Positions 4,837 through 24,000 of a DNA stretch of 24,000 nt are shown piece after piece. The stretch's first letter is position 1, and every line of letters begins with the position of its first letter. The notes under the pieces were generated by a model. The model ran no database searches. It was not told where the DNA came from and saw only the letters and a list, made by a program, of their open reading frames with translations. Origin of the DNA: Sedimentibacter saalensis (GTDB lineage: Bacteria > Bacillota > Clostridia > Tissierellales > Sedimentibacteraceae); contig NZ_VLKH01000004.1 of the NCBI RefSeq assembly GCF_007830175.1, positions 322,399 through 346,398 on the forward strand, in the 5' to 3' direction. The position numbers and the translations under genes were made by a program.

Positions 4837-5030
4837 AATTAAATATTTTGTATATTAATTTTGCGAAATTGATTTTCCTAAAGCACAAGCCATGGATGCA
4901 ATTCGTTAGGGTATAGCTGGAAACGTCTATGCCTCCCGTTGGAAAGTAGAATTAATTGCAGAGGTAATTTTTGTACTTTTATGTACCATTACATCTACAA
5001 TTGCATCTTTCTCGGGAAAGATGTTTTTTT
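4837..5030 (+). ncRNA. candidate structured RNA (riboswitch-like leader or sRNA) of unknown class
   Basis: Hairpin 4910-4933 (GGUAUAG/CUAUGCC plus UG/CG) is capped by a GAAA tetraloop. Its two U-G pairs only work on the plus strand. TGCAATT (4897-4903) can pair with AATTGCA at 4954-4960. Alternatively, as GATGCAATT (4895-4903), it can pair with AATTGCATC at 4999-5007, which overlaps the terminator stem. A second hairpin lies at 4964-4994. The element ends in the intrinsic terminator at 5004-5030. Confidence 0.4.
5004..5030 (+). terminator. rho-independent terminator (plus strand)
   Basis: CATCTTTC-TCGG-GAAAGATG forms an 8-bp stem, followed by seven T residues. Confidence 0.65.
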
Positions 5031-13914: not shown

Positions 13915-13946
13915 TTTAAAAAAATAAACGCCTTAGAAAGACGTTT
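13915..13946 (-). terminator. rho-independent terminator downstream of the GGDEF/HD-GYP gene
   Basis: On the minus strand AAACGTC-TTTCTAA-GGCGTTT forms a 7-bp stem including one G-U pair, followed by ATTTTTTT. Confidence 0.55.
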
Positions 13947-13955
13947 AATATTATT

Positions 13956-15653
13956 TTAGTTTAAATCAAGCATATTTCTATTATTACTAAGCATTCTAAT
14001 AAACTCTTGAACCATGTCCGGATCAAACTGCGATGAACTGCACGTTATCAGTTCCTCTACTGCCTGCTCATAGGTTTTTCTTTTGTGATATGGCCTGTTT
14101 GAAGTCATGGCATCAAAACTGTCAGCCACACTTAGTATCCTCACAAGATAAGGTATTTCATCTCCCATTAATCCTTTAGGATATCCTGTTCCGTCATACC
14201 ATTCATGATGGTGCAATATAAGAGGCAGCACTTCACTTAGAGCAGTAACAGTCCTTACAATCTGTGCTCCGTTTTCAGGATGTGTCTTGAGCAGATTCCA
14301 CTCCTCATCTGTAAGCACGCCTATTTTGTTTAATACATCCTTGCTTATTTGAATTTTTCCTATATCATGTAGATACGCTCCATACCTCAATGTCTTTCTG
14401 TCATTGTCAGAAAGATTGAGATGGTTTGCCATAAGTTCGCAGTAAATAACTACTCTGTCTGTGTGAGCATATGTGTAACGGTCCTTTGCATTGATAACAC
14501 TTATTAGAGTTTTTATGGAACTTATTAAATCAATATGTTTTTCGTCAATATCCTCTTTCAATTCTTCCAACACTGAATAATAACTTTCAACTCTGTTTTT
14601 ATTGAAAAACTTTGCCCTGTACAAAGCATCATCAGCAGTATTGATTAGTTCTTTTTTGTTTTTAGCCTTTATGGGATAACATGAAACACCTATAGAAATA
14701 GTCAAATTTCCGTTAGGTTGATTTTCTTCACCTTCAAAATGTGTGTTTTCTACAGCATCTCTTAATCTGTTTCCTATTTCAACAGCTTCTTCCTCGCAGG
14801 TATCCGGCAATATAATTGCAAATTCTTCACCGCCGTATCTAGCAATCACATCATTTTCTCTTACATTTTTTTTGAATATTTCTCCGAACTTATTCAGCAC
14901 AACATCACCTGCACTATGGCCATAAAGATCATTGTAATATTTGAAATGGTCAATATCAATGAATAAAAGCCCCAGTACCTTATTTGACTTGTCTGCTTCA
15001 TGAATGTGCTCGGACAATGAATTTTGGAAATATCTGTGGTTGTATACGCCGGTCAACTCGTCAATATTTGCCAGATGCAATGTATTTTCTCTGTGCTGGT
15101 TTTCAAGTTTCACATAATAACCCAAAAGCCATGCCATTATCACAAATACTCCTGACAGCACCAAATCTGCTTCAAAATATTTGTTAACACCGGTTTTATA
15201 CCCCAGTAAATCTATTATCAAAATAGCAACAGAGCTTATGACAGCAGTTGTTATGCCAGTATTGAAGCCATATTGAATTGTATTTGCAATTATTATAAAT
15301 AAATACAGGAATTTGTACTGGCTTTCATGGAATCCTGATATACAAATCAGTCCTGTATATATGGCCATAAAAACTACACTTTCTATGAGGCTGCTTATAT
15401 TATACACTTGTTCAATCTGATCTTTTTTAAAACTGTGCAGCCATCCCTCGCATATGAGAACAAAAATTCCAAACCCTATGAAGTTTAAGGCAACAATGTT
15501 ATTTCCAATTGTATTGCTCACCCACGACATCATATAAAGGTTTTCTGGAAATTGTGTAAATATAACAATACCACATATCAAAAGAGAAATGAGCTTTAAT
15601 ACAGACAACATGTCGTATAATTTTTGTTTTCTATTTATGTCAATTTGCATCAT
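13956..15653 (-). CDS. polytopic membrane protein with GGDEF diguanylate cyclase and HD-GYP phosphodiesterase domains
   Basis: The N-terminal 190 aa or so contain about 5-6 hydrophobic helices. The GGDEF domain has an intact GGEEF motif and an RxxD I-site (VRENDVIARYGGEEF). The HD-GYP domain has HTDRV, YLHDIGK and HHHEWYDGTGYP. The start is placed at the ATG at 15653, with an AGGTGA RBS 5 nt upstream; the GTG at 15662 lies inside that RBS. Confidence 0.85.
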   Translation of the reverse strand: MMQIDINRKQKLYDMLSVLKLISLLICGIVIFTQFPENLYMMSWVSNTIGNNIVALNFIGFGIFVLICEGWLHSFKKDQIEQVYNISSLIESVVFMAIYTGLICISGFHESQYKFLYLFIIIANTIQYGFNTGITTAVISSVAILIIDLLGYKTGVNKYFEADLVLSGVFVIMAWLLGYYVKLENQHRENTLHLANIDELTGVYNHRYFQNSLSEHIHEADKSNKVLGLLFIDIDHFKYYNDLYGHSAGDVVLNKFGEIFKKNVRENDVIARYGGEEFAIILPDTCEEEAVEIGNRLRDAVENTHFEGEENQPNGNLTISIGVSCYPIKAKNKKELINTADDALYRAKFFNKNRVESYYSVLEELKEDIDEKHIDLISSIKTLISVINAKDRYTYAHTDRVVIYCELMANHLNLSDNDRKTLRYGAYLHDIGKIQISKDVLNKIGVLTDEEWNLLKTHPENGAQIVRTVTALSEVLPLILHHHEWYDGTGYPKGLMGDEIPYLVRILSVADSFDAMTSNRPYHKRKTYEQAVEELITCSSSQFDPDMVQEFIRMLSNNRNMLDLN

Positions 15654-15680
15654 TTTTATCACCTGCTTTGCATGTCCAAT

Positions 15681-15706
15681 AAAAAGGGGTCATAAGACCC
15701 CTTTTT
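15681..15706 (-). terminator. intrinsic terminator or attenuator between agrD and the GGDEF/HD-GYP gene
   Basis: The minus strand reads AAAAAGGGGTC-TTAT-GACCCCTTTTT followed by ATT, overlapping the agrD stop codon. The GC core is 6 bp, flanked by an A-tract and a T-tract. Confidence 0.6.
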
Positions 15707-15842
15707 ATTCTTCTCTTAATGATTTAGGTTCTTCTGGCTGATACATTCCCCACCAGCAAGCTGAAGCAGTAGTTGTTGTAGCTAAAAATGACAACATTAC
15801 AGCTGCTAAAGTCATAACCTTCAATACTAGACCTTTTTTCAT
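15705..15842 (-). CDS. agrD: AgrD-type cyclic (thio)lactone autoinducing peptide precursor, 45 aa; not in the supplied ORF track
   Basis: Hand translation gives MKKGLVLKVMTLAAVMLSFLATTTTASACWWGMYQPEEPKSLREE. It has an amphipathic/hydrophobic leader, a single Cys followed by 4 residues (CWWGM), then an acidic YQPEEPKSLREE tail typical of clostridial AgrD. Its ATG overlaps the agrB TGA stop (ATGA at 15842-15839). Confidence 0.8.
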   Translation of the reverse strand: MKKGLVLKVMTLAAVMLSFLATTTTASACWWGMYQPEEPKSLREE

Positions 15843-16510
15843 TTGTTCGCCCTCCTATTTAGTATAGTCGTACCCCCCATAAACGTATCTAAAGATTCTA
15901 TAATTATGTGTCCAAGAGATACCAAAGTTATAGATTGCCATAAAATACCTGTGGATATACATACGGCAACAGTTAAAAAATTAATGTTATTTGTAAGTAC
16001 ATAAGCATATGTCATAACTATGTTTACAGCCAACATGCTTAAAGTAAACATCAAAGACTGCTTTTTAAGTCGTTTTCTTTTATCCGGATTTTTTAATGGT
16101 TTGTTGACACTGCCAACAGGACAATATTTAATCATAACATAGAAAACAAAAGCAAACTCTAATGCCATTAATCCAATTAAATATACAAATTCAATATTAA
16201 TCATCAGATGTTTTACCAAAAGTCCAAGAACACAAAATATAATCATTCCAATAACAGCACAGTTCAATGGTTTAGTTGCATGGACTCCGCCTGAAAACTT
16301 CCTTAAAATTGCCGCTGCAAAGGAAATAATCATAGATTCAGCAAAAACCCCTAACAAAAGACCAAAAGCAGCAATTGCAAAAATAGACAATACAGTCTGA
16401 ATTAGTGCAAACGCTCCGTAGGCAATAACCTCTTCCTGGTCATGTCCAAGGGATAAATTTGAAGAAACAACTGAAGCAAAGGATTTAGAAACCTTGTCAA
16501 TCCAACTCAT
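15839..16510 (-). CDS. agrB: AgrB, accessory gene regulator B (membrane peptidase that processes AgrD)
   Basis: Polytopic membrane protein with LRKFSGGVHATKPLNC. The catalytic His and Cys are 7 residues apart, as in staphylococcal AgrB (H77/C84). RBS AGAGGA. Confidence 0.85.
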   Translation of the reverse strand: MSWIDKVSKSFASVVSSNLSLGHDQEEVIAYGAFALIQTVLSIFAIAAFGLLLGVFAESMIISFAAAILRKFSGGVHATKPLNCAVIGMIIFCVLGLLVKHLMINIEFVYLIGLMALEFAFVFYVMIKYCPVGSVNKPLKNPDKRKRLKKQSLMFTLSMLAVNIVMTYAYVLTNNINFLTVAVCISTGILWQSITLVSLGHIIIESLDTFMGGTTILNRRANK

Positions 16511-16958
16511 TTTTAATCCTCTTGCTTTTTAAATTAATAATTATAACTACAATCAAGTAATAGAATATCATTGAAGGAATACCTGCTATTACCGATAACA
16601 ATGTTTGTCCAGACAATGCTGATGTAAAATTAAGAGAATTGTAGACAACAACCAGTATTATATCTGAAGAAAACAACAATATTACTGATGTCAAAGTAGC
16701 TTTAATAGCTTTATGTATCTCAATATTATTCAATTTAACAGCCAATGCAATATCAAACAAAATAGCTATAATTGTATGTACTCCGAAATGAATTGGTAAA
16801 AATCTTACAAAATAAATTCCGACACCTCCAATTACACCGGATATTAATACTTTTTTAAAATCAACTTCTGAATCAGATAAAAGACAAATTGCATACATAA
16901 CTAAAAATGTTTCAGGAATTATTCTAATAAATAACGAATATATAGGTTGCTGAAGCAT
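16497..16958 (-). CDS. small integral membrane protein (about 5 TM helices) of unknown function, first gene of the agr-like operon
   Basis: Hydrophobic profile with about 5 helices. The start is placed at the ATG at 16958, with a GGAGA RBS 5 nt upstream. Its 3' end overlaps the agrB start by 14 nt. Confidence 0.6.
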   Translation of the reverse strand: MLQQPIYSLFIRIIPETFLVMYAICLLSDSEVDFKKVLISGVIGGVGIYFVRFLPIHFGVHTIIAILFDIALAVKLNNIEIHKAIKATLTSVILLFSSDIILVVVYNSLNFTSALSGQTLLSVIAGIPSMIFYYLIVVIIINLKSKRIKNELD

Positions 16959-17014
16959 AAAATTCTCCAAGTTGAATCATATTTTTAATCTAAATTTTAT
17001 TATGTTTCGTAAAA

Positions 17015-17043
17015 ATTATAGCATTTAGTGTCGATAAATACAA
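17015..17043 (-). promoter_or_regulatory. putative sigma-A promoter (extended -10) of the agr-like operon
   Basis: On the minus strand: TTGTAT (17043-17038), a 17-nt spacer ending in TGC, then TATAAT (17020-17015). Confidence 0.45.
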
Positions 17044-17057
17044 TGTTTTTTCAAAAT

Positions 17058-17157
17058 AATTACAATTAATTAGGTAAAAAATGCTATATTAACAATTTTT
17101 TCCTTTATTCGAAAATATTAATGTAATTTAAGGAAAAAACTTCAAAATTACAATTAA
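17058..17157. repeat. three copies of an AATTACA(A)TTAA motif upstream of the agr-like promoter
   Basis: AATTACAATTAA occurs at 17058-17069 and 17146-17157 as exact direct copies. TTAATGTAATT at 17118-17128 is an inverted copy lacking one base. The last two form an inverted repeat with a 17-nt spacer. Confidence 0.45.
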
Positions 17158-17194: not shown

Positions 17195-18172
17195 TCAGCA
17201 ATAACTGCCTTCAACTTCTTTACAGTATTCTACCAGTTTGTTCTTTACATTGTCAGGTGAAAGGATTTTAACCTTGTTGCCAAACTGAAATATCCACCCC
17301 AGAAAAGGAGGACTTATTTGAACTCTCACAATTGCCATGAAGTTGTCCTGGTCGTATTTGTGTATTATTGTTTTTTCACCAAAGCGGTCAATTACAACAC
17401 CAAGCAGAGAATTGTCAAACAATGCTTCCAAAGTTACTTCCTCCCCTCCAAACATACCAAACACTTTTTTGGCATGATCTCCAAAATTTATATGATCTCC
17501 TTGTTCTGCTGCTATTTCCAGAATTTCTATGTCTTCCATCTTGTCCACACGAAAGTGAGAAATTCTATCATGTTTTTCACAATCAGCAATCAGGTAGTAA
17601 TTTTCATCATACCATGTGAGGGTATAGGGACTTGCTGTATATCTTTCACCATTGTTTCTGTATCTTTTTTTCTTGTCAACTGTATATTCAAAGTACTTGA
17701 AGGAAATTTGCCTGTGGGTTGCAACAGCAAGATGTATTCTGTCAACATTGCAGTAAATTTTTTCATTCATGGTTTTTACTCTGTCGGCCACATAAACCTG
17801 TCGTTTTAGCTGCAAAGCCTCGTAATTACTGGCTAGACTGCTTATTTTCCTTATGAGGTCTCTAGATTTTCTTTCAGTGATAAATTTTGACGATGCCACA
17901 GCATCTGCAAGAAGTTTAAGCTCTGCCAGTTCAAAAGTTCTGTCCCCGACATAGTAGCTATAAGTCTTTGATTTTTTGCATAAAATATCAATTCCGTAGC
18001 TTTTTAAGGAATCAATATCGTTGTAAATGCTTTTTCTTTCTGCATTTATGTCGTATTTTTTTAGTTCGTTTATAAGGTCTGGAACTGTTAAGGAATGTTC
18101 TGAGTCAGTTTTTTCGAAAAGAATTTTCAACAAATACATCAGCTTTAATTTTTGATTTGATAATTTAGACAT
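17195..18172 (-). CDS. WYL-domain transcriptional regulator (N-terminal wHTH + WYL + C-terminal extension)
   Basis: N-terminal LKLMYLLKILFEKTDSEHSLTVPDLINELKKYDINAERKSIYNDIDSL (HTH_11-like). The WYL region is ISFKYFEY...PYTLTWYDENYYLIADCEKHDRISHFRVDKM. The start is placed at the ATG at 18172, with a GGGGGG RBS. Confidence 0.8.
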   Translation of the reverse strand: MSKLSNQKLKLMYLLKILFEKTDSEHSLTVPDLINELKKYDINAERKSIYNDIDSLKSYGIDILCKKSKTYSYYVGDRTFELAELKLLADAVASSKFITERKSRDLIRKISSLASNYEALQLKRQVYVADRVKTMNEKIYCNVDRIHLAVATHRQISFKYFEYTVDKKKRYRNNGERYTASPYTLTWYDENYYLIADCEKHDRISHFRVDKMEDIEILEIAAEQGDHINFGDHAKKVFGMFGGEEVTLEALFDNSLLGVVIDRFGEKTIIHKYDQDNFMAIVRVQISPPFLGWIFQFGNKVKILSPDNVKNKLVEYCKEVEGSYC

Positions 18173-18445
18173 TTTACCCCCCGATACAATGTTAATATAT
18201 TTAATTGTGCTTTTAAAACAAAATTTCATAAATACCTGCTCCGACACTTAATTTATCGGCTGTATTTTATATAATTTTATAATTTCATATATTATTTCCA
18301 AGACCTGTTCCTGTGCATAATCAGGTATAATTGCTGCATCAACACCAGAATGTGCATATTTGAATACATAGTGACCATTCTTACACATAATTATTATATG
18401 ATAATTTTACCAAGCATTCAATAATGTTAAAAAATTTTATTATAT

Positions 18446-18479: not shown

Positions 18480-19862
18480 TTATAACATCAATGAAATATT
18501 CTTAATTTCATCATTTATTTCCTTGTAGCTCTTGCCTGTTATGTTGCATATGTTTTTTACATCTTCATATTCAGGCTTACAAAACACATTTCCTTCATAG
18601 CTGCTAACTTTTACTTTAACAGGACCATACTTTGTTTCCACTTCTATTATTTCCCTGTTAAGAACAGTCCTCTCAGTCCTGTATCTTCTGATACCAATAG
18701 TTGTTGTGTTGTTAAATATTACAGATTCCATTTTTCTAATGTCATCTTCTTTGCATATTACTGTCAGTCTGTAAGCCGGTCTGCTTTTTTTCATGTAAAT
18801 TGGAGTGAAGAAAACATCGCTTGCTCCGTCTTCAAAAAGTTTCTCCATTGTGAATGACAGACTTTCTCCCGTAGAATCATCAATGTTTGTTTCAAGCACC
18901 CACATATATTTATTTCCTTGGCAATGATGCATGTCTGTTTCTGATTGTTCATTTGATTCTTCAATCAGATAAGTTCTGAGCACATTTGCTTTGTCAAAAT
19001 CTTTTTTACCGGCACCTGTTCCAGTTTTCTTGATGGTGTAGGATAGAGGCAGAGAATCCATAGTCTTAATAGCCGCTGCTATTGCTGCTCCTGTAGGTGT
19101 TATCATTTCGCCCCTGGCTTGTGTTATTCTTATGGGCAGAGAATGTTCTGCTGCAATGTTTACGACCGCAGGAACAGGAACAGGAATTATGCCGTGTTGG
19201 CATTTAACATGACCTCTTCCTTCATACAGTTCAGAAACCACTACATCATCAATTTTAAGGTTATCTATTAATATGGCCAAAGCAACAATGTCAACTATGG
19301 AATCAACTGCTCCCACCTCGTGGAAATGAACTTCTGAAACTCCAAGACCGTGAGCCTTTGCTTCTGCTTCTGCCACAACCTGGAAAATCTTTCTGGAAAT
19401 TGATTTTGCTCTGTTTGTAATTTTTGATTCATCAATTATTTTTAATATATCGACTATGTTTCTGTGTTCATGGTAATGATGTGCATGTTGTCCATGACTG
19501 TCATCTGCTTCTTGATAATGTTCATGGTGGTCATGATCATATGAATGACAGTGGCCGTTTTCTATTTCATGTCCATGACTGTGCTCGTGATGATGTTCAT
19601 GGTCATGATGGTGTTCATGGTCGTGATGGTGCTCATGTTCGTGATGGTGCTCATGCTCTTGTTCTAAAACAACATTAAAATCACATGCATCTATGCCACA
19701 TTTCTTTGTTCTTCCTATTTCTATGCTGTATCCGTCTACATTCAGACTTCTCAATCCTTCCATCATCACTTCCCTGTCACCGCCCAGATCAAGAAGGGAT
19801 GCTACAGTCATATCACCGCTTATTCCTGAATAACATTCCATATACAAAATTCTTTTGCTCAT
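18480..19862 (-). CDS. larC: LarC, nickel-pincer cofactor nickel-insertion protein (DUF111 family), single fused ORF with a long His-rich insert
   Basis: The N-terminus YMECYSGISGDM is typical of LarC/DUF111. A His-rich tract spans residues 67-133. The C-terminal LarC2-like region is present in the same frame. Confidence 0.9.
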   Translation of the reverse strand: MSKRILYMECYSGISGDMTVASLLDLGGDREVMMEGLRSLNVDGYSIEIGRTKKCGIDACDFNVVLEQEHEHHHEHEHHHDHEHHHDHEHHHEHSHGHEIENGHCHSYDHDHHEHYQEADDSHGQHAHHYHEHRNIVDILKIIDESKITNRAKSISRKIFQVVAEAEAKAHGLGVSEVHFHEVGAVDSIVDIVALAILIDNLKIDDVVVSELYEGRGHVKCQHGIIPVPVPAVVNIAAEHSLPIRITQARGEMITPTGAAIAAAIKTMDSLPLSYTIKKTGTGAGKKDFDKANVLRTYLIEESNEQSETDMHHCQGNKYMWVLETNIDDSTGESLSFTMEKLFEDGASDVFFTPIYMKKSRPAYRLTVICKEDDIRKMESVIFNNTTTIGIRRYRTERTVLNREIIEVETKYGPVKVKVSSYEGNVFCKPEYEDVKNICNITGKSYKEINDEIKNISLML

Positions 19863-20605
19863 TATTGTACCGCCAATCTGTTTATTTGTGTGCTCATGTA
19901 CCCTGCTCCAAAACCATTGTCAATGTTTACTACAGCAATTCCTTCTGCACATGAATTAAGCATTGTGAGAAGAGAAGAAAGCCCGTTAAAATTTGCACCG
20001 TAACCTATTGATGTGGGCACTGCTATTACTGGTTTATGGGACATTCCTGCTATTACTCCGGGCAAGGCTCCTTCCATGCCGGCAACAGCTACAATGCAGT
20101 TGGCTTTGTTTATATCTTCAATTTTTGAAAGAAGTCTGTGAATTCCTGCTACTCCAACATCGTAAACCCTCATTACCCTGCTTCCGAAAAATTCCGCTGT
20201 CTGTGCAGCTTCTTCTGCAACTGCAATGTCCGATGTTCCTCCTGTGCACACTGCAATTAAACCAGTTTGTTCCGGAACATTCCTCATTATTTTTACAATG
20301 CGCGACATTTCGTCATATTCAGCTTCAGGCATAAGTGCATTTATTGCTTCATATTGTTCCTTTGAAGCTCTTGTACCCATTATGTTTATATTTTTTTCAT
20401 TGAATGACTGAAAAATCTTAACAAGGTGCTCTGTTGATTTTCCGCTGCAGTAAACAACCTCTCCAAATCCCGACCGAAGCATTCTGTGGTGGTCAAGCTT
20501 TGCAAACCCAAGGTCCTCGTAAGGAAGTTTTTTAAGAGTTTTTTCAGCTTCACTCAAATCAATTTCATTGTTCTTTACTTTTAACAGCAATTCGTGAATA
20601 TCCAT
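19862..20605 (-). CDS. larB: LarB, pyridinium-3,5-biscarboxylic acid mononucleotide synthase (PurE/AIR-carboxylase-like)
   Basis: DHHRMLRSGFGEVVYCSGK plus the PurE-like core IAVCTGGTSDIAVAEEA...VAGMEGALPGV. Its stop overlaps the larC start (TAATG). Confidence 0.9.
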   Translation of the reverse strand: MDIHELLLKVKNNEIDLSEAEKTLKKLPYEDLGFAKLDHHRMLRSGFGEVVYCSGKSTEHLVKIFQSFNEKNINIMGTRASKEQYEAINALMPEAEYDEMSRIVKIMRNVPEQTGLIAVCTGGTSDIAVAEEAAQTAEFFGSRVMRVYDVGVAGIHRLLSKIEDINKANCIVAVAGMEGALPGVIAGMSHKPVIAVPTSIGYGANFNGLSSLLTMLNSCAEGIAVVNIDNGFGAGYMSTQINRLAVQ

Positions 20606-20621
20606 CTTAACCTCTTTTATT

Positions 20622-21434
20622 TTATTTTTCCAAATTAATATCCATGCTTCCGGAACGGAAGCCTTCTATATCCAATGTAATATAAACAAAGCCGGATCTT
20701 TTCATGAAATCAATGATGGATTGGCTGTTTTCTACCAATTTGATCATATTTTCCTTTGTTACCTCGATTCTTGCTATGTCATTGTGAACCCTCACTCTAA
20801 CAACATCAAAGCCCAAGCTCTTTATAAAATCCTCTGCTTTATCTATTTTTTCTAAAATTTCAAAATTTAATTCAGTATTGTAAGGAAGTCTTGTAGCCAT
20901 GCATGGTGCTGATGGTCTTGAAGCAACAGAAATGTTTAAGCTCTTTGCCATTTCTCTTACTTCCTGCTTTGATATATCAAGCTCTGCCAAGGGGCTTACA
21001 ACTCCCAGTTCTCCAAGAGCCTTTACGCCGGGTCTGTAGACTTTCAGGTCATCTGCATTAGTGCCGTCAACCACGTATTTTAGATCATTGTTCTTTGCAA
21101 ATTCAGTTAAATTTACAAACAGCGATTTTTTGCACAAATAGCATCTGTTTACGGGATTTTTCAATATTTCCTTGTTTTCAAATTCATTTACCTGAATTAT
21201 TTTATGAATGGCTCCCATTTCTCCTGCCACTTTTTTTGAAACAGTTACGTCAGAAACAGGGTGCAGTCTTGTTTCAAAAGTTACGGCGTATACATTCTTG
21301 TTTTGTTTTTTCCCTGCTTCGCATGAAAGTTTAAGTATGAGACTGCTGTCAACTCCTCCTGAAAAGGCAATACATACTCCGCCTTCAACAAGCTTGTTTA
21401 TTTTTTCTTCTAGCAATAAAAATTTATTTTCCAT
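20622..21434 (-). CDS. larE: LarE, ATP-dependent sulfur transferase of nickel-pincer cofactor synthesis (PP-loop ATP pyrophosphatase)
   Basis: PP-loop AFSGGVDSS. VRVRVHNDIARIE and ITLDIEGFRSGSMD match Lactobacillus plantarum LarE as recalled from memory. The start is placed at the ATG at 21434, with a GGGAGGA RBS. Confidence 0.9.
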   Translation of the reverse strand: MENKFLLLEEKINKLVEGGVCIAFSGGVDSSLILKLSCEAGKKQNKNVYAVTFETRLHPVSDVTVSKKVAGEMGAIHKIIQVNEFENKEILKNPVNRCYLCKKSLFVNLTEFAKNNDLKYVVDGTNADDLKVYRPGVKALGELGVVSPLAELDISKQEVREMAKSLNISVASRPSAPCMATRLPYNTELNFEILEKIDKAEDFIKSLGFDVVRVRVHNDIARIEVTKENMIKLVENSQSIIDFMKRSGFVYITLDIEGFRSGSMDINLEK

Positions 21435-21447
21435 AATTCCTCCCATG

Positions 21448-22212
21448 TTAGGTCATTTGTTTATATTTTGAGCAAACAGGACACCCCTGAAGCACAAATG
21501 GTTTTTCAAGTCCGCATCTGTCAAGAAGCTCTTCATTTCTTAATATTTCATCTGATTTTCCGTCAGCCAGAACTCTGCCTTCGCCTATAACTATTGTTCT
21601 TTCGCAAACATCAAGTACCATGTCCAGGTCGTGAGTTGCTATTATTTTTGTGTGTTTAAATTCTTTCAATATGTTAATGAGCCTTCTTCTTGACTTAGGA
21701 TCAAGGTTGGATGAAGGTTCATCCATGAGAAGTATGTCAGGTTCCATTGATAATACACAAGCTATTGAAACCGAACGCTTTTCTCCTCCTGAAAGCTTGT
21801 AGGTTTGTCTGTCTGACAAATGTGATGCTCCTACAATTTCCAGGGCTCTTTCAACTCTTTTCTTAACTTCATTTTCTGATAATTTATAATTTCTTGGCCC
21901 AAAGGCAACATCATCATAAACTGTGGTGCTGAACAGCTGATGATCCGGATTTTGAAATGTAAAACCAATTCTCTGCCTTATTGACGGAAGTGTTTTTTTA
22001 TCAAGCGGAACATTGCCTATTCTTATTTCACCGCTGTCAGGGAACAAAATTCCGACCATTGACAAAAGAAGAGTTGATTTTCCTGCACCGTTACTTCCTA
22101 CCACTGCCACTGATTCTCCGTGATAAATTTCAAAATTCACACCGTTTAGTGCCTTTTTCCCATCAGGATATGAATAGCAAACATTGTCTATAATTACATT
22201 GTGATGACTCAT
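21448..22212 (-). CDS. cbiO: ECF/CbiMNQO-type transporter ATPase (CbiO/LarO-like)
   Basis: Walker A GSNGAGKST, signature LSGGEKRS, Walker B ILLMDEP. The start is placed at the ATG at 22212, with an AGGAGC RBS and a 1-nt overlap with the cbiQ stop. The upstream 26 codons in the ORF track overlap cbiQ and are unlikely to be coding. Confidence 0.85.
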   Translation of the reverse strand: MSHHNVIIDNVCYSYPDGKKALNGVNFEIYHGESVAVVGSNGAGKSTLLLSMVGILFPDSGEIRIGNVPLDKKTLPSIRQRIGFTFQNPDHQLFSTTVYDDVAFGPRNYKLSENEVKKRVERALEIVGASHLSDRQTYKLSGGEKRSVSIACVLSMEPDILLMDEPSSNLDPKSRRRLINILKEFKHTKIIATHDLDMVLDVCERTIVIGEGRVLADGKSDEILRNEELLDRCGLEKPFVLQGCPVCSKYKQMT

Positions 22213-23018
22213 TAAAATGCTCCTGTCATAATGTTGCCAAGTATTACCGGCACATTGTAAAATCTGACTAATAATAAAAATACAACACACAAAATCAAAT
22301 ACACATAATCATTTATGCGAAAAATATTTTTAGCCGTATAATATTCCCCTTGGTATCCACGCAAGCACATTGCACTGTAAATTGATTGTGCTCTGTCGTA
22401 CGTTCTCATCAATAACTGCCCCAAAAGCGGTCCCCACATATTATTGTGAATTCCTTTTTGTCCCGGAGCCCTTAAAAAATATGAAGTACTTATTGTTGAA
22501 AATTCTTCAATCAAGACATATGTATAGCGGTATGTGAGCAAAAAAACCATTATAAAAATTTTCGGCACATGTAGGCTGCCAAGGGCTTTTGCAATATCGT
22601 CCACTGAAGTAGTTGCAATTAAAAGCATTCCGCACATAACTGATAATGTGCTTTTTATTATGAGGCTTATATATGATAAAATACCTCTTGATACAATCAT
22701 ATTTTCAAAGATTACAACCGCTTCTTTGTCAAGTATTGGATTGGAAATTCCAACAAGCATAATAAGAGGCAGCACCAGCAGCGACCTTTTTAATACGGGC
22801 ATAACCTTAATGTCTCCAAGGTTGAAAACTATAGACGGATATATTGCCAGTGGAATCAGTGCCACAATTTCATACTTGTTAAATGAAACAGCAGTTAAAA
22901 TATAAAAAAAACTTGCCAACAATTTGACCAAAGGATTCAGTTTGTGAATCACTGTGTCATTTTGAGCTATTTCATCGAAATACCTTAATCCATACATTGA
23001 TTTTGTAATTTTATTCAT
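22212..23018 (-). CDS. cbiQ: ECF/CbiMNQO-type transporter transmembrane component (CbiQ/LarQ-like)
   Basis: Polytopic membrane protein with the N-terminal pattern IHKLNPLVKLL typical of CbiQ/EcfT. It sits between cbiM and cbiO. Confidence 0.8.
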   Translation of the reverse strand: MNKITKSMYGLRYFDEIAQNDTVIHKLNPLVKLLASFFYILTAVSFNKYEIVALIPLAIYPSIVFNLGDIKVMPVLKRSLLVLPLIMLVGISNPILDKEAVVIFENMIVSRGILSYISLIIKSTLSVMCGMLLIATTSVDDIAKALGSLHVPKIFIMVFLLTYRYTYVLIEEFSTISTSYFLRAPGQKGIHNNMWGPLLGQLLMRTYDRAQSIYSAMCLRGYQGEYYTAKNIFRINDYVYLILCVVFLLLVRFYNVPVILGNIMTGAF

Positions 23019-23031
23019 TTGTCTGTCCCGG

Positions 23032-24000
23032 TTAGTTATTGATTTTAGCCTTTATTTGTCTGTATTTTTTTGAAATTTTTCCTATTAATGCAGCAACTAT
23101 TAACGTCAAAATACTTCCTGATATTCCTGAAAGTGAAGTTCCAAGTTTTGCTTGAGTTTGAGCTTCCTGATCAGATTTAAAATTATAATCCGGAAGAAAT
23201 GAGATTTTATCCTGAACGCTTCTTAGAAGTTCATGTATGCTGCTGTTGCCTTCAACCTCGTTGCTGTCAATTGTTTTTTCTATTGACCATTCAAGACCGT
23301 CAGGATTATTTGATGCATACCATGATGCAATTCCTCCTATAACTAGTGCCGCACAAAGAAGCAATGCAACAACTTTTTTATTATTACTGTTATTAATTTT
23401 ATCCAGGTTGCTGCTTTCAAGAAGTTCGGGGCGGGTGTTCCATAAAAACGAAATGACTGCAGCAGTCAGCAGTCCTTCAACAATACCTATTGCCAGGTGT
23501 ATGGGCTGCATCATAATTACAAACGTGCCAAAAGGAAGTTCAGTCTTCCCTGAAAAAAATGTTTCAAGTACAACAGCAAATGATCCAAGCTGAAGTCCTA
23601 CTACAGCTGCAATCAGCGATCCGATAAGAATATTTTTCTTTGACATTTTCTTATGTATTATTTTTTTATAAATAAGAGGATATGCAACATAACATGTGAA
23701 AAATCCCATGTTGAATATGTTGCATCCAAGTGCAAGCAGCCCCCCATCAGCAAAAAAAAGAGCTTGAATTGCCAGTATTGAAATCAGCGTCAAAAATCCT
23801 GCATGAGGTCCAAGAAGTGCTGCTAAAAGGATGCCTCCTCCAATATGACCGCTGGAACCCGTTCCTGGAATAGTAAAATTTATCATCTGAGAAGCAAAAA
23901 CAAATGCTCCCATAACCCCCATCAAAGGAATCTTTTTTTCATTTTCTTCAATTTCTGTCTGAACCTTTTTTACAGAATATGTGGCAGCGCCAGCAGAAGC
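23032..24000 (-). CDS. cbiM: CbiM-type Ni/Co transporter substrate component fused to a C-terminal PDGLE (CbiN-like) domain; 5' end outside the window
   Basis: The frame is open to the window edge (323 codons). It contains IPLMGVMGAFVFASQMINFTIPGTGSSGHIGGG (CbiM core) and a C-terminal WYASNNPDGLEWSIEK plus a terminal TM helix (PDGLE domain). Confidence 0.8.
   Translation of the reverse strand, partial: ASAGAATYSVKKVQTEIEENEKKIPLMGVMGAFVFASQMINFTIPGTGSSGHIGGGILLAALLGPHAGFLTLISILAIQALFFADGGLLALGCNIFNMGFFTCYVAYPLIYKKIIHKKMSKKNILIGSLIAAVVGLQLGSFAVVLETFFSGKTELPFGTFVIMMQPIHLAIGIVEGLLTAAVISFLWNTRPELLESSNLDKINNSNNKKVVALLLCAALVIGGIASWYASNNPDGLEWSIEKTIDSNEVEGNSSIHELLRSVQDKISFLPDYNFKSDQEAQTQAKLGTSLSGISGSILTLIVAALIGKISKKYRQIKAKINN

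Follow-up and report, generated by a model that had tools for sequence, protein, structure and literature searches.

Closest described systems

Pathogenic and industrial clostridia use Agr-like peptides to govern sporulation, biofilm formation and the production of toxins, and a receptor gene is missing from most of the loci. A direct path from a quorum signal to a c-di-GMP enzyme is known elsewhere: RpfR of Burkholderia reads BDSF, and cyclases with dCache domains have been reported to bind AI-2. The logic that we propose below for a Sedimentibacter locus is the same, with a sensor domain of a c-di-GMP enzyme reading the quorum signal without a two-component relay. The signals in those systems, however, are a fatty acid or a furanosyl borate, the sensors are PAS or dCache domains, and none of them involves an agr-type peptide.

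Agr loci of the Clostridium perfringens type have no agrCA; they are served by unlinked regulators (PMC4963840), and the peptide is reportedly sensed by the unlinked kinase VirS (PMC7492741, PMC4963840). VirS binds the C. perfringens peptide, and swapped VirS variants alter peptide specificity; Li and McClane left room for more peptide receptors in this species (PMC7492741). The published operon analysis ends at agrD (PMC2706048), and we found no discussion of the downstream enzyme, annotated as CPE1560, in the literature searched. For Agr1 of C. difficile the pathway downstream of the peptide has been called unknown (PMC11210211), and according to a 2022 review the quorum-sensing pathways of C. 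botulinum remain to be defined (PMC9229411).

An agr-like locus followed by a c-di-GMP enzyme

We analysed a 24-kb stretch of Sedimentibacter DNA (the window) in which, as judged from its sequence, a C. perfringens-type Agr-like locus is present. The whole block lies on the minus strand in the order 5-TM gene, agrB, agrD, hairpin with T-tract and a gene for a 6-TM/GGDEF/HD-GYP protein. This confirms the layout given in an earlier note on this DNA, including the 51-nt gap from the agrD stop to the ATG of the enzyme gene. The first gene (16497..16958) encodes a membrane protein with five TM helices (153 aa counted from the ATG), which is identical to WP_145082658.1 and is the counterpart of C. 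perfringens CPE1562. The agrB gene (15839..16510) encodes the AgrD-processing membrane peptidase/cyclase; its product matches PF04647 over the full length (E = 7e-38) and shares 96% identity with its counterpart in Sedimentibacter sp. B4. Directly 3′ of it, agrD (15705..15842) encodes a 45-aa autoinducing-peptide precursor (TIGR04223, E = 6e-13; ...SACWWGMYQPEEPKSLREE) with the thiolactone cysteine and the charged C-terminal recognition tail of an AgrBD module, the conserved tail after the predicted ring being YQPEEPKSLREE. The cysteine with the four residues after it, followed by YQPEEPK, aligns with 40 homologues and with AgrD of C. perfringens (...SACLWFTHQPEEPKSLRDE). By analogy with the latter species, the product is predicted to be the five-residue thiolactone CWWGM.

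The enzyme gene (13956-15653) encodes a protein of 565 aa from its ATG, with domains assigned by Pfam and NCBIfam. An N-terminal 6-TM sensor domain of an uncharacterised family (residues 1-190; 15084..15653) precedes the catalytic part (13956..15083), which consists of GGDEF (residues 195-353, Pfam E = 8e-49) and HD_5/HD-GYP (residues 382-546, Pfam E = 7e-39). The I-site and active site read REND-VIARY-GGEEF, with RxxD five residues upstream, and the HD-GYP motifs are LHDIGK and HHHEWYDGTGYP, the second of the form HHExxDGxGYP. Among 40 orthologues, GGEEF and HD[IV]GK are found in every one and RxxD in most; HHE..GYP is kept in the eight commonest variants of the second HD-GYP motif, those listed, which account for 30 of the 40. 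Judged by these residues, the GGDEF cyclase with its I-site and the HD-GYP phosphodiesterase are both intact. All motifs that the earlier note had read from this gene were thus found, and its membrane domain of about 190 aa has six TM helices.

Pfam searches with every window ORF of 80 aa or more yielded no histidine kinase and no LytTR regulator; in particular, an AgrC-type HATPase_c_5/HPK10 kinase and an AgrA LytTR protein are absent among these ORFs. The remark that no cognate receptor lies nearby therefore stands for kinases and LytTR regulators in the 24 kb, while the situation is not the unusual one it was taken for, because the C. perfringens type lacks agrCA. An Rfam scan of the agr locus returned no RNA family.

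By sequence comparison, the block is orthologous to the agr locus of C. perfringens (CPE1562, agrB, agrD, CPE1560). Published primers for strain 13 matched the C. perfringens loci with zero mismatches and so identified them (PMC2706048), and in these verified loci tblastn placed the genes for the 5-TM protein, AgrB and AgrD in the order seen in the window. Identities between the two species are 31% for the 5-TM protein, 35% for AgrB, and 39, 61 and 58% for the TM, GGDEF and HD-GYP regions of the enzyme, which has 563 aa in C. perfringens. Both share the AgrD tail QPEEPKSLR[DE]E, an equivalent hairpin after agrD and a locus without agrCA; they differ in the ring, CWWGM in the window versus CLWFT. 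The agr-1 and agr-2 regions of C. botulinum and C. sporogenes have the same TM-GGDEF-HD-GYP enzyme after their first agrBD pair but, unlike the window, contain two agrBD pairs plus kinases sharing the sensor domain.

As in agrBDCA of Staphylococcus aureus, AgrB and AgrD would make a cyclic thiolactone (predicted for the window), a polytopic membrane sensor lies just downstream of agrD, and divergence of the sensor region goes along with that of AgrB and AgrD. Unlike in S. aureus, the locus lacks an HPK10 kinase (AgrC) and a LytTR regulator (AgrA), the sensor TM domain is unrelated, the predicted output is c-di-GMP turnover instead of phosphotransfer, a 5-TM gene is added and no RNAIII was seen. 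The earlier note considered such wiring undescribed. We too found no paper describing a linkage of agr to a c-di-GMP enzyme in the literature searched; as sequence, however, the arrangement is not new, since C. perfringens and C. botulinum genomes studied for years carry it.

Conservation of the gene order

Whether the synteny holds across Clostridia was the first check that the earlier note had named, and it does. Among 48 species-level loci retrieved with an AgrB profile and anchored on AgrB, 44 have the order 5-TM, AgrB, AgrD, 6-TM/GGDEF/HD-GYP; a single AgrB sequence pattern lay behind the retrieval, so this count is valid for this AgrB subfamily. Two of the four exceptions are loci cut by contig ends, and in C. 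frigidicarnis and C. oceanicum agrBD is kept while the enzyme is missing beside AgrB. The four-gene order was also found in Paeniclostridium and in C. perfringens, with more than 45 other anaerobes in all, spread over Clostridiaceae, Peptostreptococcaceae, Tissierellia and Peptococcaceae. The adjacency persists across families in which AgrB is merely 27-40% identical, and the genes flanking the block are entirely different between lineages while the block itself stays intact. The 5-TM gene is located upstream of agrB in nearly all related loci; the Peptococcaceae have two or three 5-TM paralogues in tandem.

The agrD-enzyme spacer and limits of the transcription unit

A hairpin resembling an intrinsic terminator (15678..15709) begins at the agrD stop codon, which is contained in its 5′ arm. 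The arms are AAUAAAAAGGGGUC-UUAU-GACCCCUUUUUAUU, with the core GGGGUC-UUAU-GACCCC followed by UUUUUAUU. For the 67-nt spacer the folding energy is −22.5 kcal/mol (z = −5.2), a value reached by none of 200 shuffled sequences. The hairpin leaves just 24 nt before the start codon of the enzyme gene, and part of them is taken by the ribosome-binding site AGGTG (15664-15660), which was read from the sequence and lies with its spacer (15654..15664) ahead of the ATG at 15653; the lack of room for a promoter noted earlier was thus borne out. The hairpin with its T-tract proved to be conserved as well: 35 of 43 distinct agrD-sensor spacers have a hairpin and a T-rich tail, versus 0.14 expected from shuffles. 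The median length of these spacers is 55 nt, so in most species an independent promoter has no room. A promoter-like match at 15678-15649, lying over the enzyme start codon, was rejected, as its −10 takes in the ATG.

On the 3′ side of the enzyme gene a second terminator-like hairpin with a run of seven Ts (13925..13947; −9.1 kcal/mol, z = −4.2) is likely to be the end of the transcription unit. Some transcripts would read past the internal hairpin, so that agr and the enzyme gene would be co-transcribed, and the hairpin might then act as the attenuator proposed in the earlier note. Since the internal hairpin is stronger than the end terminator, read-through may be slight, even very low.

A putative sigma-A promoter of the block was read from the sequence upstream of the 5-TM gene (17015..17043). 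It consists of a −35 TTGTAT (17043-17038), a 17-nt spacer and an extended −10, TGc-TATAAT (17023-17015). A consensus scan missed this site because its −35 agrees at just three of six positions. Sedimentibacter relatives down to 55% AgrB identity retain the −10 with its TG as well as the −35 region.

The 6-TM sensor domain

Searches of residues 1-190 against Pfam up to E = 10 returned noise only, although MASE9-12, which have been described without a tie to agr loci (10.1101/2021.11.05.467447), may lie outside the Pfam set searched. No curated Pfam model among the MASE families, 5TMR-LYT, 7TMR-DISM and PilS 6TM matched the domain; its kinase-borne version gave sub-threshold matches to DUF4118 and 6TM_PilS. 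A PDB sequence search with the sensor-domain profile also produced noise only. In the AF2 model (pLDDT 88.5) six TM helices are seen, the last one running into a long helix toward GGDEF. The best structural match was ImcA of Pseudomonas aeruginosa (PDB 8wcn; TM-score about 0.5, with a non-significant E = 0.3). ImcA likewise has a six-helix membrane domain preceding a cyclase but has no HD-GYP and no agr context, and is 10-12% identical. The comparison with AgrC sensors that had been suggested for this domain gave no detectable similarity: the hhalign probability against the AgrC-I N-terminus was 0.3%, a weak comparison made with a provisional AgrC sequence. No match to an agr cassette, looked for as a source of AgrC, turned up in a phage collection.

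Homologue searches with the TM domain through a word index, alone or as a profile, gave only two to five proteins; the index overlooked near-identical Sedimentibacter proteins and is therefore unreliable for this query. An exhaustive profile search was partly swamped by GGDEF matches, because all 287 alignment columns had entered the profile, and only matches confined to positions 1-210 were kept.

Mean pairwise identity is 43% in the TM domain versus 65% in GGDEF and 69% in HD-GYP. Divergence of the sensor half keeps pace with that of AgrB, AgrD and the 5-TM protein, whereas the catalytic half is conserved. Within the sensor domain conservation is lowest in residues 34-49, the predicted first outer loop, and highest at polar positions within helices 4-6. 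With catalytic similarity removed, TM similarity correlates with peptide-ring identity at rho = 0.21 (permutation p about 0.006), a weak correlation in which common descent and the generally faster evolution of the TM region are confounders.

The same sensor domain on histidine kinases

The sensor TM domain is also found at the N-terminus of PAS-HisKA-HATPase kinases, at 32-38% identity in end-to-end alignment. In one locus (L061) such a kinase occupies the slot directly after agrD; in the C. botulinum/sporogenes/tepidum group the kinases lie between two agrBD pairs; in Alkaliphilus a kinase is located 1.1 kb from agrBD. A domain shared in this way by kinases after or beside agrBD is the pattern expected of a locus-specific sensor module. 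In size and architecture the C. botulinum-group kinases (615 and 617 aa) match CBO0336 and CBO0340, uncharacterised candidate sporulation kinases for which no agr link has been drawn (PMC11210211); a separate copy of the 5-TM gene precedes the kinase that lies between the two agrBD pairs. Pairs of a 5-TM gene and a sensor-domain kinase also occur with no agrBD within 8-9 kb (L056-58 and L070), and the 5-TM gene of L056-58 was checked to be a homologue of that in the window. These pairs suggest that the cue for the sensor may be the 5-TM protein or something else.

Interpretation

We would give even chances to the 6-TM domain being an agr-linked sensor, probably of the locus's own peptide, that steers c-di-GMP and whose gene is expressed by read-through of the hairpin. 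The promoter would drive synthesis of the 5-TM protein, AgrB and AgrD and, going by C. perfringens, secretion of the five-residue thiolactone CWWGM. The 6-TM domain would most likely answer this peptide, directly or jointly with the 5-TM protein, and would tip the enzyme toward synthesis or toward degradation of c-di-GMP; cell density would in this way be translated into a second-messenger level with no two-component system involved. A PAS-histidine kinase would be the output of this domain in other species. The enzyme gene would have no promoter of its own and would be transcribed from agr transcripts reading through the hairpin at the agrD stop, and partial read-through would yield plentiful agrD message and scarce sensor enzyme. 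The results favour, without proving it, that agr and the sensor are functionally linked, and the 6-TM domain becomes a plausible peptide receptor. We advance more tentatively the wider proposal that this new domain, possibly with the 5-TM protein, is a widespread clostridial receptor of agr peptides with either GGDEF/HD-GYP or a PAS-kinase as its output. Several observations weigh against a peptide receptor: VirS is the experimentally supported one in C. perfringens, which has the same block (PMC7492741), and added to this are the kinase pairs without agrBD, the losses in C. frigidicarnis and C. oceanicum, the lack of AgrC similarity and the lack of an informative fold match.

The binding and swap data on VirS (PMC7492741), together with the working of C. 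perfringens-type loci through unlinked regulators (PMC4963840), would fit a different situation, in which an unlinked VirS- or AgrC-type kinase senses the peptide, the enzyme is a neighbour under shared regulation and the cue for its membrane domain is a different one, for instance the envelope or membrane state or a metabolite; the conserved polar residues in helices 4-6 could hold a common ligand and not a variable peptide. We regard this as rather unlikely, for it leaves unexplained why the domain is carried by kinases at agr loci in three arrangements, why the adjacency survives across families with 27-40% AgrB identity and why the sensor half tracks AgrB, the 5-TM protein and AgrD beside a conserved catalytic half. 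Less probable still, in our view, is that the sensor pairs with the 5-TM protein and not with free peptide, the signal being the state of that protein (peptide export or processing flux) or a ligand bound to it. Such pairing is suggested by the 5-TM homologues directly preceding sensor kinases without agrBD nearby, by the separate copy ahead of the C. botulinum-group kinase and by the tandem paralogues of Peptococcaceae. Yet no fold or family could be recognised for the 5-TM protein, which is not related to the sensor domain, and the pairs without agrBD could be receptors that eavesdrop on a peptide from another source, a variant of the own-peptide sensor preferred here. That the adjacency is meaningless, a frozen ancestral gene order with the hairpin merely ending the agr operon, seems very improbable: the hairpin does resemble a complete terminator and two loci have lost the enzyme gene while keeping agrBD, but the block stays together where its flanks change completely, the slot after agrD has been refilled by a kinase bearing the same domain and the spacer is in most species too short for a separate promoter.

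A sensor domain that accompanies agrD in at least four families, with interchangeable outputs, is a concrete and testable candidate, and it suggests that cell density could feed directly into c-di-GMP and, where the domain sits on kinases, possibly into Spo0A. If the peptide-sensing interpretation is true, the domain would be the receptor so far missing for ‘orphan’ agrBD loci and a second one besides VirS in C. perfringens, and orphan PAS-kinases of the kind proposed to phosphorylate Spo0A would carry the peptide signal to sporulation. C. perfringens is tractable in this respect, with synthetic peptide, agrB mutants and c-di-GMP tools in print.

Gene starts and the 5-TM protein

The GTG at 15662 was discarded as a start of the enzyme gene, as it falls within the AGGTG ribosome-binding site; from the ATG, the protein begins with the N-terminus MxxIDINRKQKLYD that its orthologues conserve. 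The TTG at 16970 chosen by the ORF tool for the 5-TM gene is probably too early. The 5-TM protein matched no Pfam family and no PDB sequence, a PDB profile search included, and hhalign found its family unrelated to the 6-TM sensor domain (0.6%). The JGI label ‘YjjB/DUF3815’ has no Pfam backing, and a kinship with SpoIIGA is unconvincing (weak matches in two of 26 members, E about 0.01). The AF2 model (pLDDT 87) is a bundle of five helices without a significant fold match in structure comparison. In one alignment of the 5-TM protein, residues P15, E16, P55, G59 and H61 are invariant.

Organization of the agr block

The agr block lies on the minus strand and consists of four genes. The first encodes a 153-aa protein with five transmembrane segments (5-TM protein; 16958-16497), which is identical to WP_145082658.1 and has no Pfam family. 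It is followed by agrB (16510-15839; PF04647, E = 7e-38), agrD (15842-15705; 45 aa, TIGR04223, E = 6e-13) and a gene for a 565-aa sensor enzyme (15653-13956). Its N-terminal part (residues 1-190) is a membrane domain; Pfam domains assigned to the remainder are GGDEF (195-353, E = 8e-49) and HD_5/HD-GYP (382-546, E = 7e-39), with motifs REND-x5-GGEEF, LHDIGK and HHHEWYDGTGYP. The GTG at 15662 chosen by the ORF tool falls within the AGGTG ribosome-binding site and was rejected as the enzyme start; started from the ATG at 15653, the protein has the N-terminal sequence that its orthologues share. A putative extended -10 promoter (TTGTAT-17 nt-TGcTATAAT, 17043-17015, minus strand), conserved in relatives, precedes the block, and a terminator-like site (13947-13925, minus strand) follows the sensor enzyme.

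The earlier note had described agrBD with a membrane GGDEF/HD-GYP gene 51 nt beyond agrD on the same strand, and no histidine kinase or LytTR regulator in the 24 kb. Every part of this description was confirmed: the gap is 51 nt, and no kinase or LytTR domain is present in any of the remaining ORFs of the window that are 80 aa or longer. The locus has neither AgrC nor AgrA and is not of the Staphylococcus aureus agrBDCA type.

Sedimentibacter sp. B4 has an AgrB 96% identical to the one encoded here, and both this strain and one metagenome contig share the entire 20-kb gene order with the window. Directly upstream of the block is a gene for a WYL-WCX transcription regulator (17195-18247, minus strand), which is kept at that site in Sedimentibacter relatives (loci L003-L007) only, not in Clostridium loci. 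A 12-nt direct repeat, AATTACAATTAA, is found at 17058-17069 and 17146-17157, between this gene and the agr promoter.

Conservation of the four-gene block

Forty-eight loci were retrieved with an AgrB profile from one-genome-per-species contigs, followed by tblastn with the proteins of the window. The synteny of agrBD and the GGDEF/HD-GYP gene, which the earlier note had raised for Clostridia at large, proved to be conserved: the order 5-TM protein, AgrB, AgrD, sensor enzyme was observed in 44 of the 48 loci, a proportion that applies to one AgrB subfamily (one AgrB sequence pattern), not to clostridial agr loci in general. Two of the four exceptions are truncated by contig ends; the other two, from C. 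frigidicarnis and C. oceanicum, have no enzyme. The 44 loci take in Sedimentibacter, Tissierellia MAGs, Peptococcaceae ('Ca. Formimonas warabiya' and UBA6129) and more than 30 Clostridium species, among them C. botulinum ATCC 25763, C. tepidum, C. paraputrificum, C. celatum, C. cadaveris and C. gasigenes. The window is an ordinary member of this widespread and well-conserved block.

Among 40 distinct full-length orthologues of the sensor enzyme, GGEEF and HD[IV]GK are invariant (40/40 each), the eight most frequent variants (30/40) have the HHE..GYP block in common, and RxxD is present in most. It is firmly shown that the locus has a conserved fourth gene, which encodes a membrane-sensing and apparently active GGDEF/HD-GYP enzyme.

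The block was also found in Paeniclostridium, immediately after spoIIGA-sigE-sigG (L054/L055, 2100-7686), that is, in a sporulation-gene neighbourhood. Peptococcaceae loci have two or three tandem 5-TM paralogues before agrB, and one Clostridium MAG carries the sensor enzyme in two tandem copies (for these tandem loci jointly: L050, 4982-5991; L052, 4388-5949; L046, 940-3896).

The Clostridium perfringens counterpart

A degenerate DNA search with CLWFTHQPEEPK, which we take to be the C. perfringens ring and tail, returned eight metagenome loci. Three of them match the strain-13 primers (PMC2706048, Table 2) with 0-1 mismatches (L062, five of five primers with no mismatch; L065 and L067, four with none and one with a single mismatch each) and are therefore assigned to C. 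perfringens. These loci encode the 5-TM protein, AgrB and AgrD (MKKLNKNLLTLFAALTTVVATTVATSACLWFTHQPEEPKSLRDE), followed by a hairpin with a T-rich tail and a TM-GGEEF-HD-GYP protein of 563 aa (64.7 kDa). As agrD has been located between CPE1561 and CPE1560 (PMC2706048), the enzyme is the gene annotated as CPE1560; the published RT-PCR covered CPE1564 through agrD only (PMC2706048). That the window carries a C. perfringens-type agr locus is firmly shown.

In the full-text literature searched we found no mention of a GGDEF/HD-GYP gene at agr loci, including the reviews PMC4963840, PMC9229411 and PMC11210211 and an HD-GYP survey (10.1101/2021.11.05.467447); an earlier mention may exist. The only reported link found is indirect: in C. 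difficile 027, c-di-GMP genes are regulated in an AgrA-dependent manner (PMC3754575).

The agrD-enzyme spacer

The spacer hairpin, AAUAAAAAGGGGUC-UUAU-GACCCCUUUUUAUU, begins at the agrD stop codon; the folding energy of the 67-nt spacer is -22.5 kcal/mol (z = -5.2). A GC-cored hairpin with a T-rich tail was present in 35 of 43 distinct agrD-sensor spacers (median length 55 nt), against a shuffled expectation of 0.14 ± 0.37. In the window the hairpin ends 24 nt before the ATG and the ribosome-binding site occupies part of this distance, which excludes a promoter after the hairpin, as the earlier note had maintained. The sole consensus promoter match after the hairpin contains the start codon and was rejected. 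The simplest reading would be that the sensor enzyme is expressed by read-through past the hairpin. We infer this rather than take it as established, because the terminator that closes the unit is weaker than this internal hairpin (-9.1 vs -22.5 kcal/mol) and because the spacers of a few species measure 120-180 nt, long enough for a possible promoter.

In locus L002 (1-1695, a Logan contig), agrD with the ring YWGH is followed by a perfect 13-bp inverted-repeat hairpin with no T-tract, and the downstream sensor-enzyme gene is disrupted by frameshifts, which could be an assembly error or mark a pseudogene.

A sensor domain with different outputs

No Pfam model matched residues 1-190 up to E = 10, and the domain appeared unrelated to AgrC when compared with one AgrC sequence. 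A confident AlphaFold2 model built from 51 sequences (pLDDT 88.5, pTM 0.82) has six membrane helices, the last of which extends as a long helix towards GGDEF. By the positive-inside rule the N-terminus is probably cytoplasmic and residues 34-49 would be extracellular.

Recurrence of the domain was assessed by an exhaustive profile search followed by Pfam scans of the matches; a word-indexed protein search had overlooked 99%-identical sensor-domain orthologues, and its negatives are unreliable for hydrophobic queries. The same domain was found on PAS-HisKA-HATPase kinases of 614-619 aa, on a HisKA-HATPase-receiver hybrid and on a 471-aa Alkaliphilus kinase. Enzyme and kinase sensor domains align end to end and have in common the motifs (S/E)xYKFLFLFIII..TIQ.G and N.YFE.DL.L.GVF...AW.LG.YV.

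In L061, a locus near Clostridium sp. USBA 49 and C. prolinivorans, the 5-TM protein, AgrB and AgrD are followed by a kinase, which fills the slot held by the sensor enzyme in the window. Alkaliphilus metalliredigens has its kinase upstream of the 5-TM protein, AgrB and AgrD, at a distance of 1.1 kb. C. tepidum, C. botulinum, C. sporogenes and a related strain have the order 5-TM, AgrB1, AgrD1, enzyme, acetyltransferase, 5-TM', kinase, 5-TM'', AgrB2, AgrD2, with kinases of 592-617 aa. We regard it as firmly shown that the sensor domain of the enzyme is a module recurring at agr loci with a different output. The regions with two agrBD pairs in C. botulinum group I, C. sporogenes and C. tepidum are L015, L024, L031 and L032 (e.g. 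L015, 5523-12621). For CBO0336 and CBO0340, two orphan kinases listed as uncharacterised, a 2024 review gives sizes and architecture (PMC11210211); by size and architecture only, the 615- and 617-aa kinases match these two.

What the sensor module reads

We infer, with about an even chance of being right, that the sensor module senses the peptide of its own locus. The ring of AgrD is highly variable (WWGM, IWGL, YWCV, FWAM, TWYF, FYSS and others) and the tail YQPEEPK is fixed. In the 40 orthologues mean pairwise identity is 43% for the TM domain, 65% for GGDEF and 69% for HD-GYP; conservation is lowest in the predicted first outer loop, with a column mean of 0.28, and in helices 4-6 it reaches the level of the catalytic domains. 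TM similarity correlates with ring identity after catalytic-domain similarity is regressed out (rho = 0.21, permutation p ~0.006), and the reverse residual shows no correlation with ring identity; confounded by shared ancestry and a faster TM clock, this is weak evidence. In mode of working, such a sensor may resemble the direct signal-to-c-di-GMP receptors known for other signals, such as RpfR (BDSF) and dCache cyclases (AI-2), from which the locus differs in both signal and sensor domain.

According to the main rival explanation, an unlinked VirS-type kinase is the sole reader of the peptide and the enzyme senses something else. Reading by such a kinase is documented in C. perfringens, where room is left for additional peptide receptors and a peptide pulldown shows an unidentified band of ~75 kDa (PMC7492741). 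The predicted mass of the enzyme, 64.7 kDa, does not agree closely with this band, which is therefore only a lead. As a second possibility, the sensor may act by way of the 5-TM protein. Two other lineages, in which agrBD is absent from the surrounding 8-9 kb, have a 5-TM homologue immediately before a PAS-histidine kinase that carries the same 6-TM domain (L056-L058, e.g. L056, 8509-10860; L070, 7518-9845). These pairs suggest that the 5-TM protein may be the partner of the sensor, rather than or besides AgrB. The interest of peptide sensing by the module lies at the level of the family, as a hypothesis on a sensor module at agr loci that is directly testable in C. perfringens.

Other features of the window

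A Moco (molybdenum cofactor) riboswitch hit (4849-4965, plus strand, 52.6 bits) is flanked by two minus-strand genes, with no credible plus-strand ORF after it. No LarA was found in the window. The minus-strand cluster at 18480-23925 encodes LarC with a long His-rich insert, a LarB-like AIR carboxylase, a LarE-like PP-loop ATPase and CbiM-PDGLE/CbiQ/CbiO, and looks like a cluster for nickel-pincer cofactor synthesis and Ni/Co uptake.
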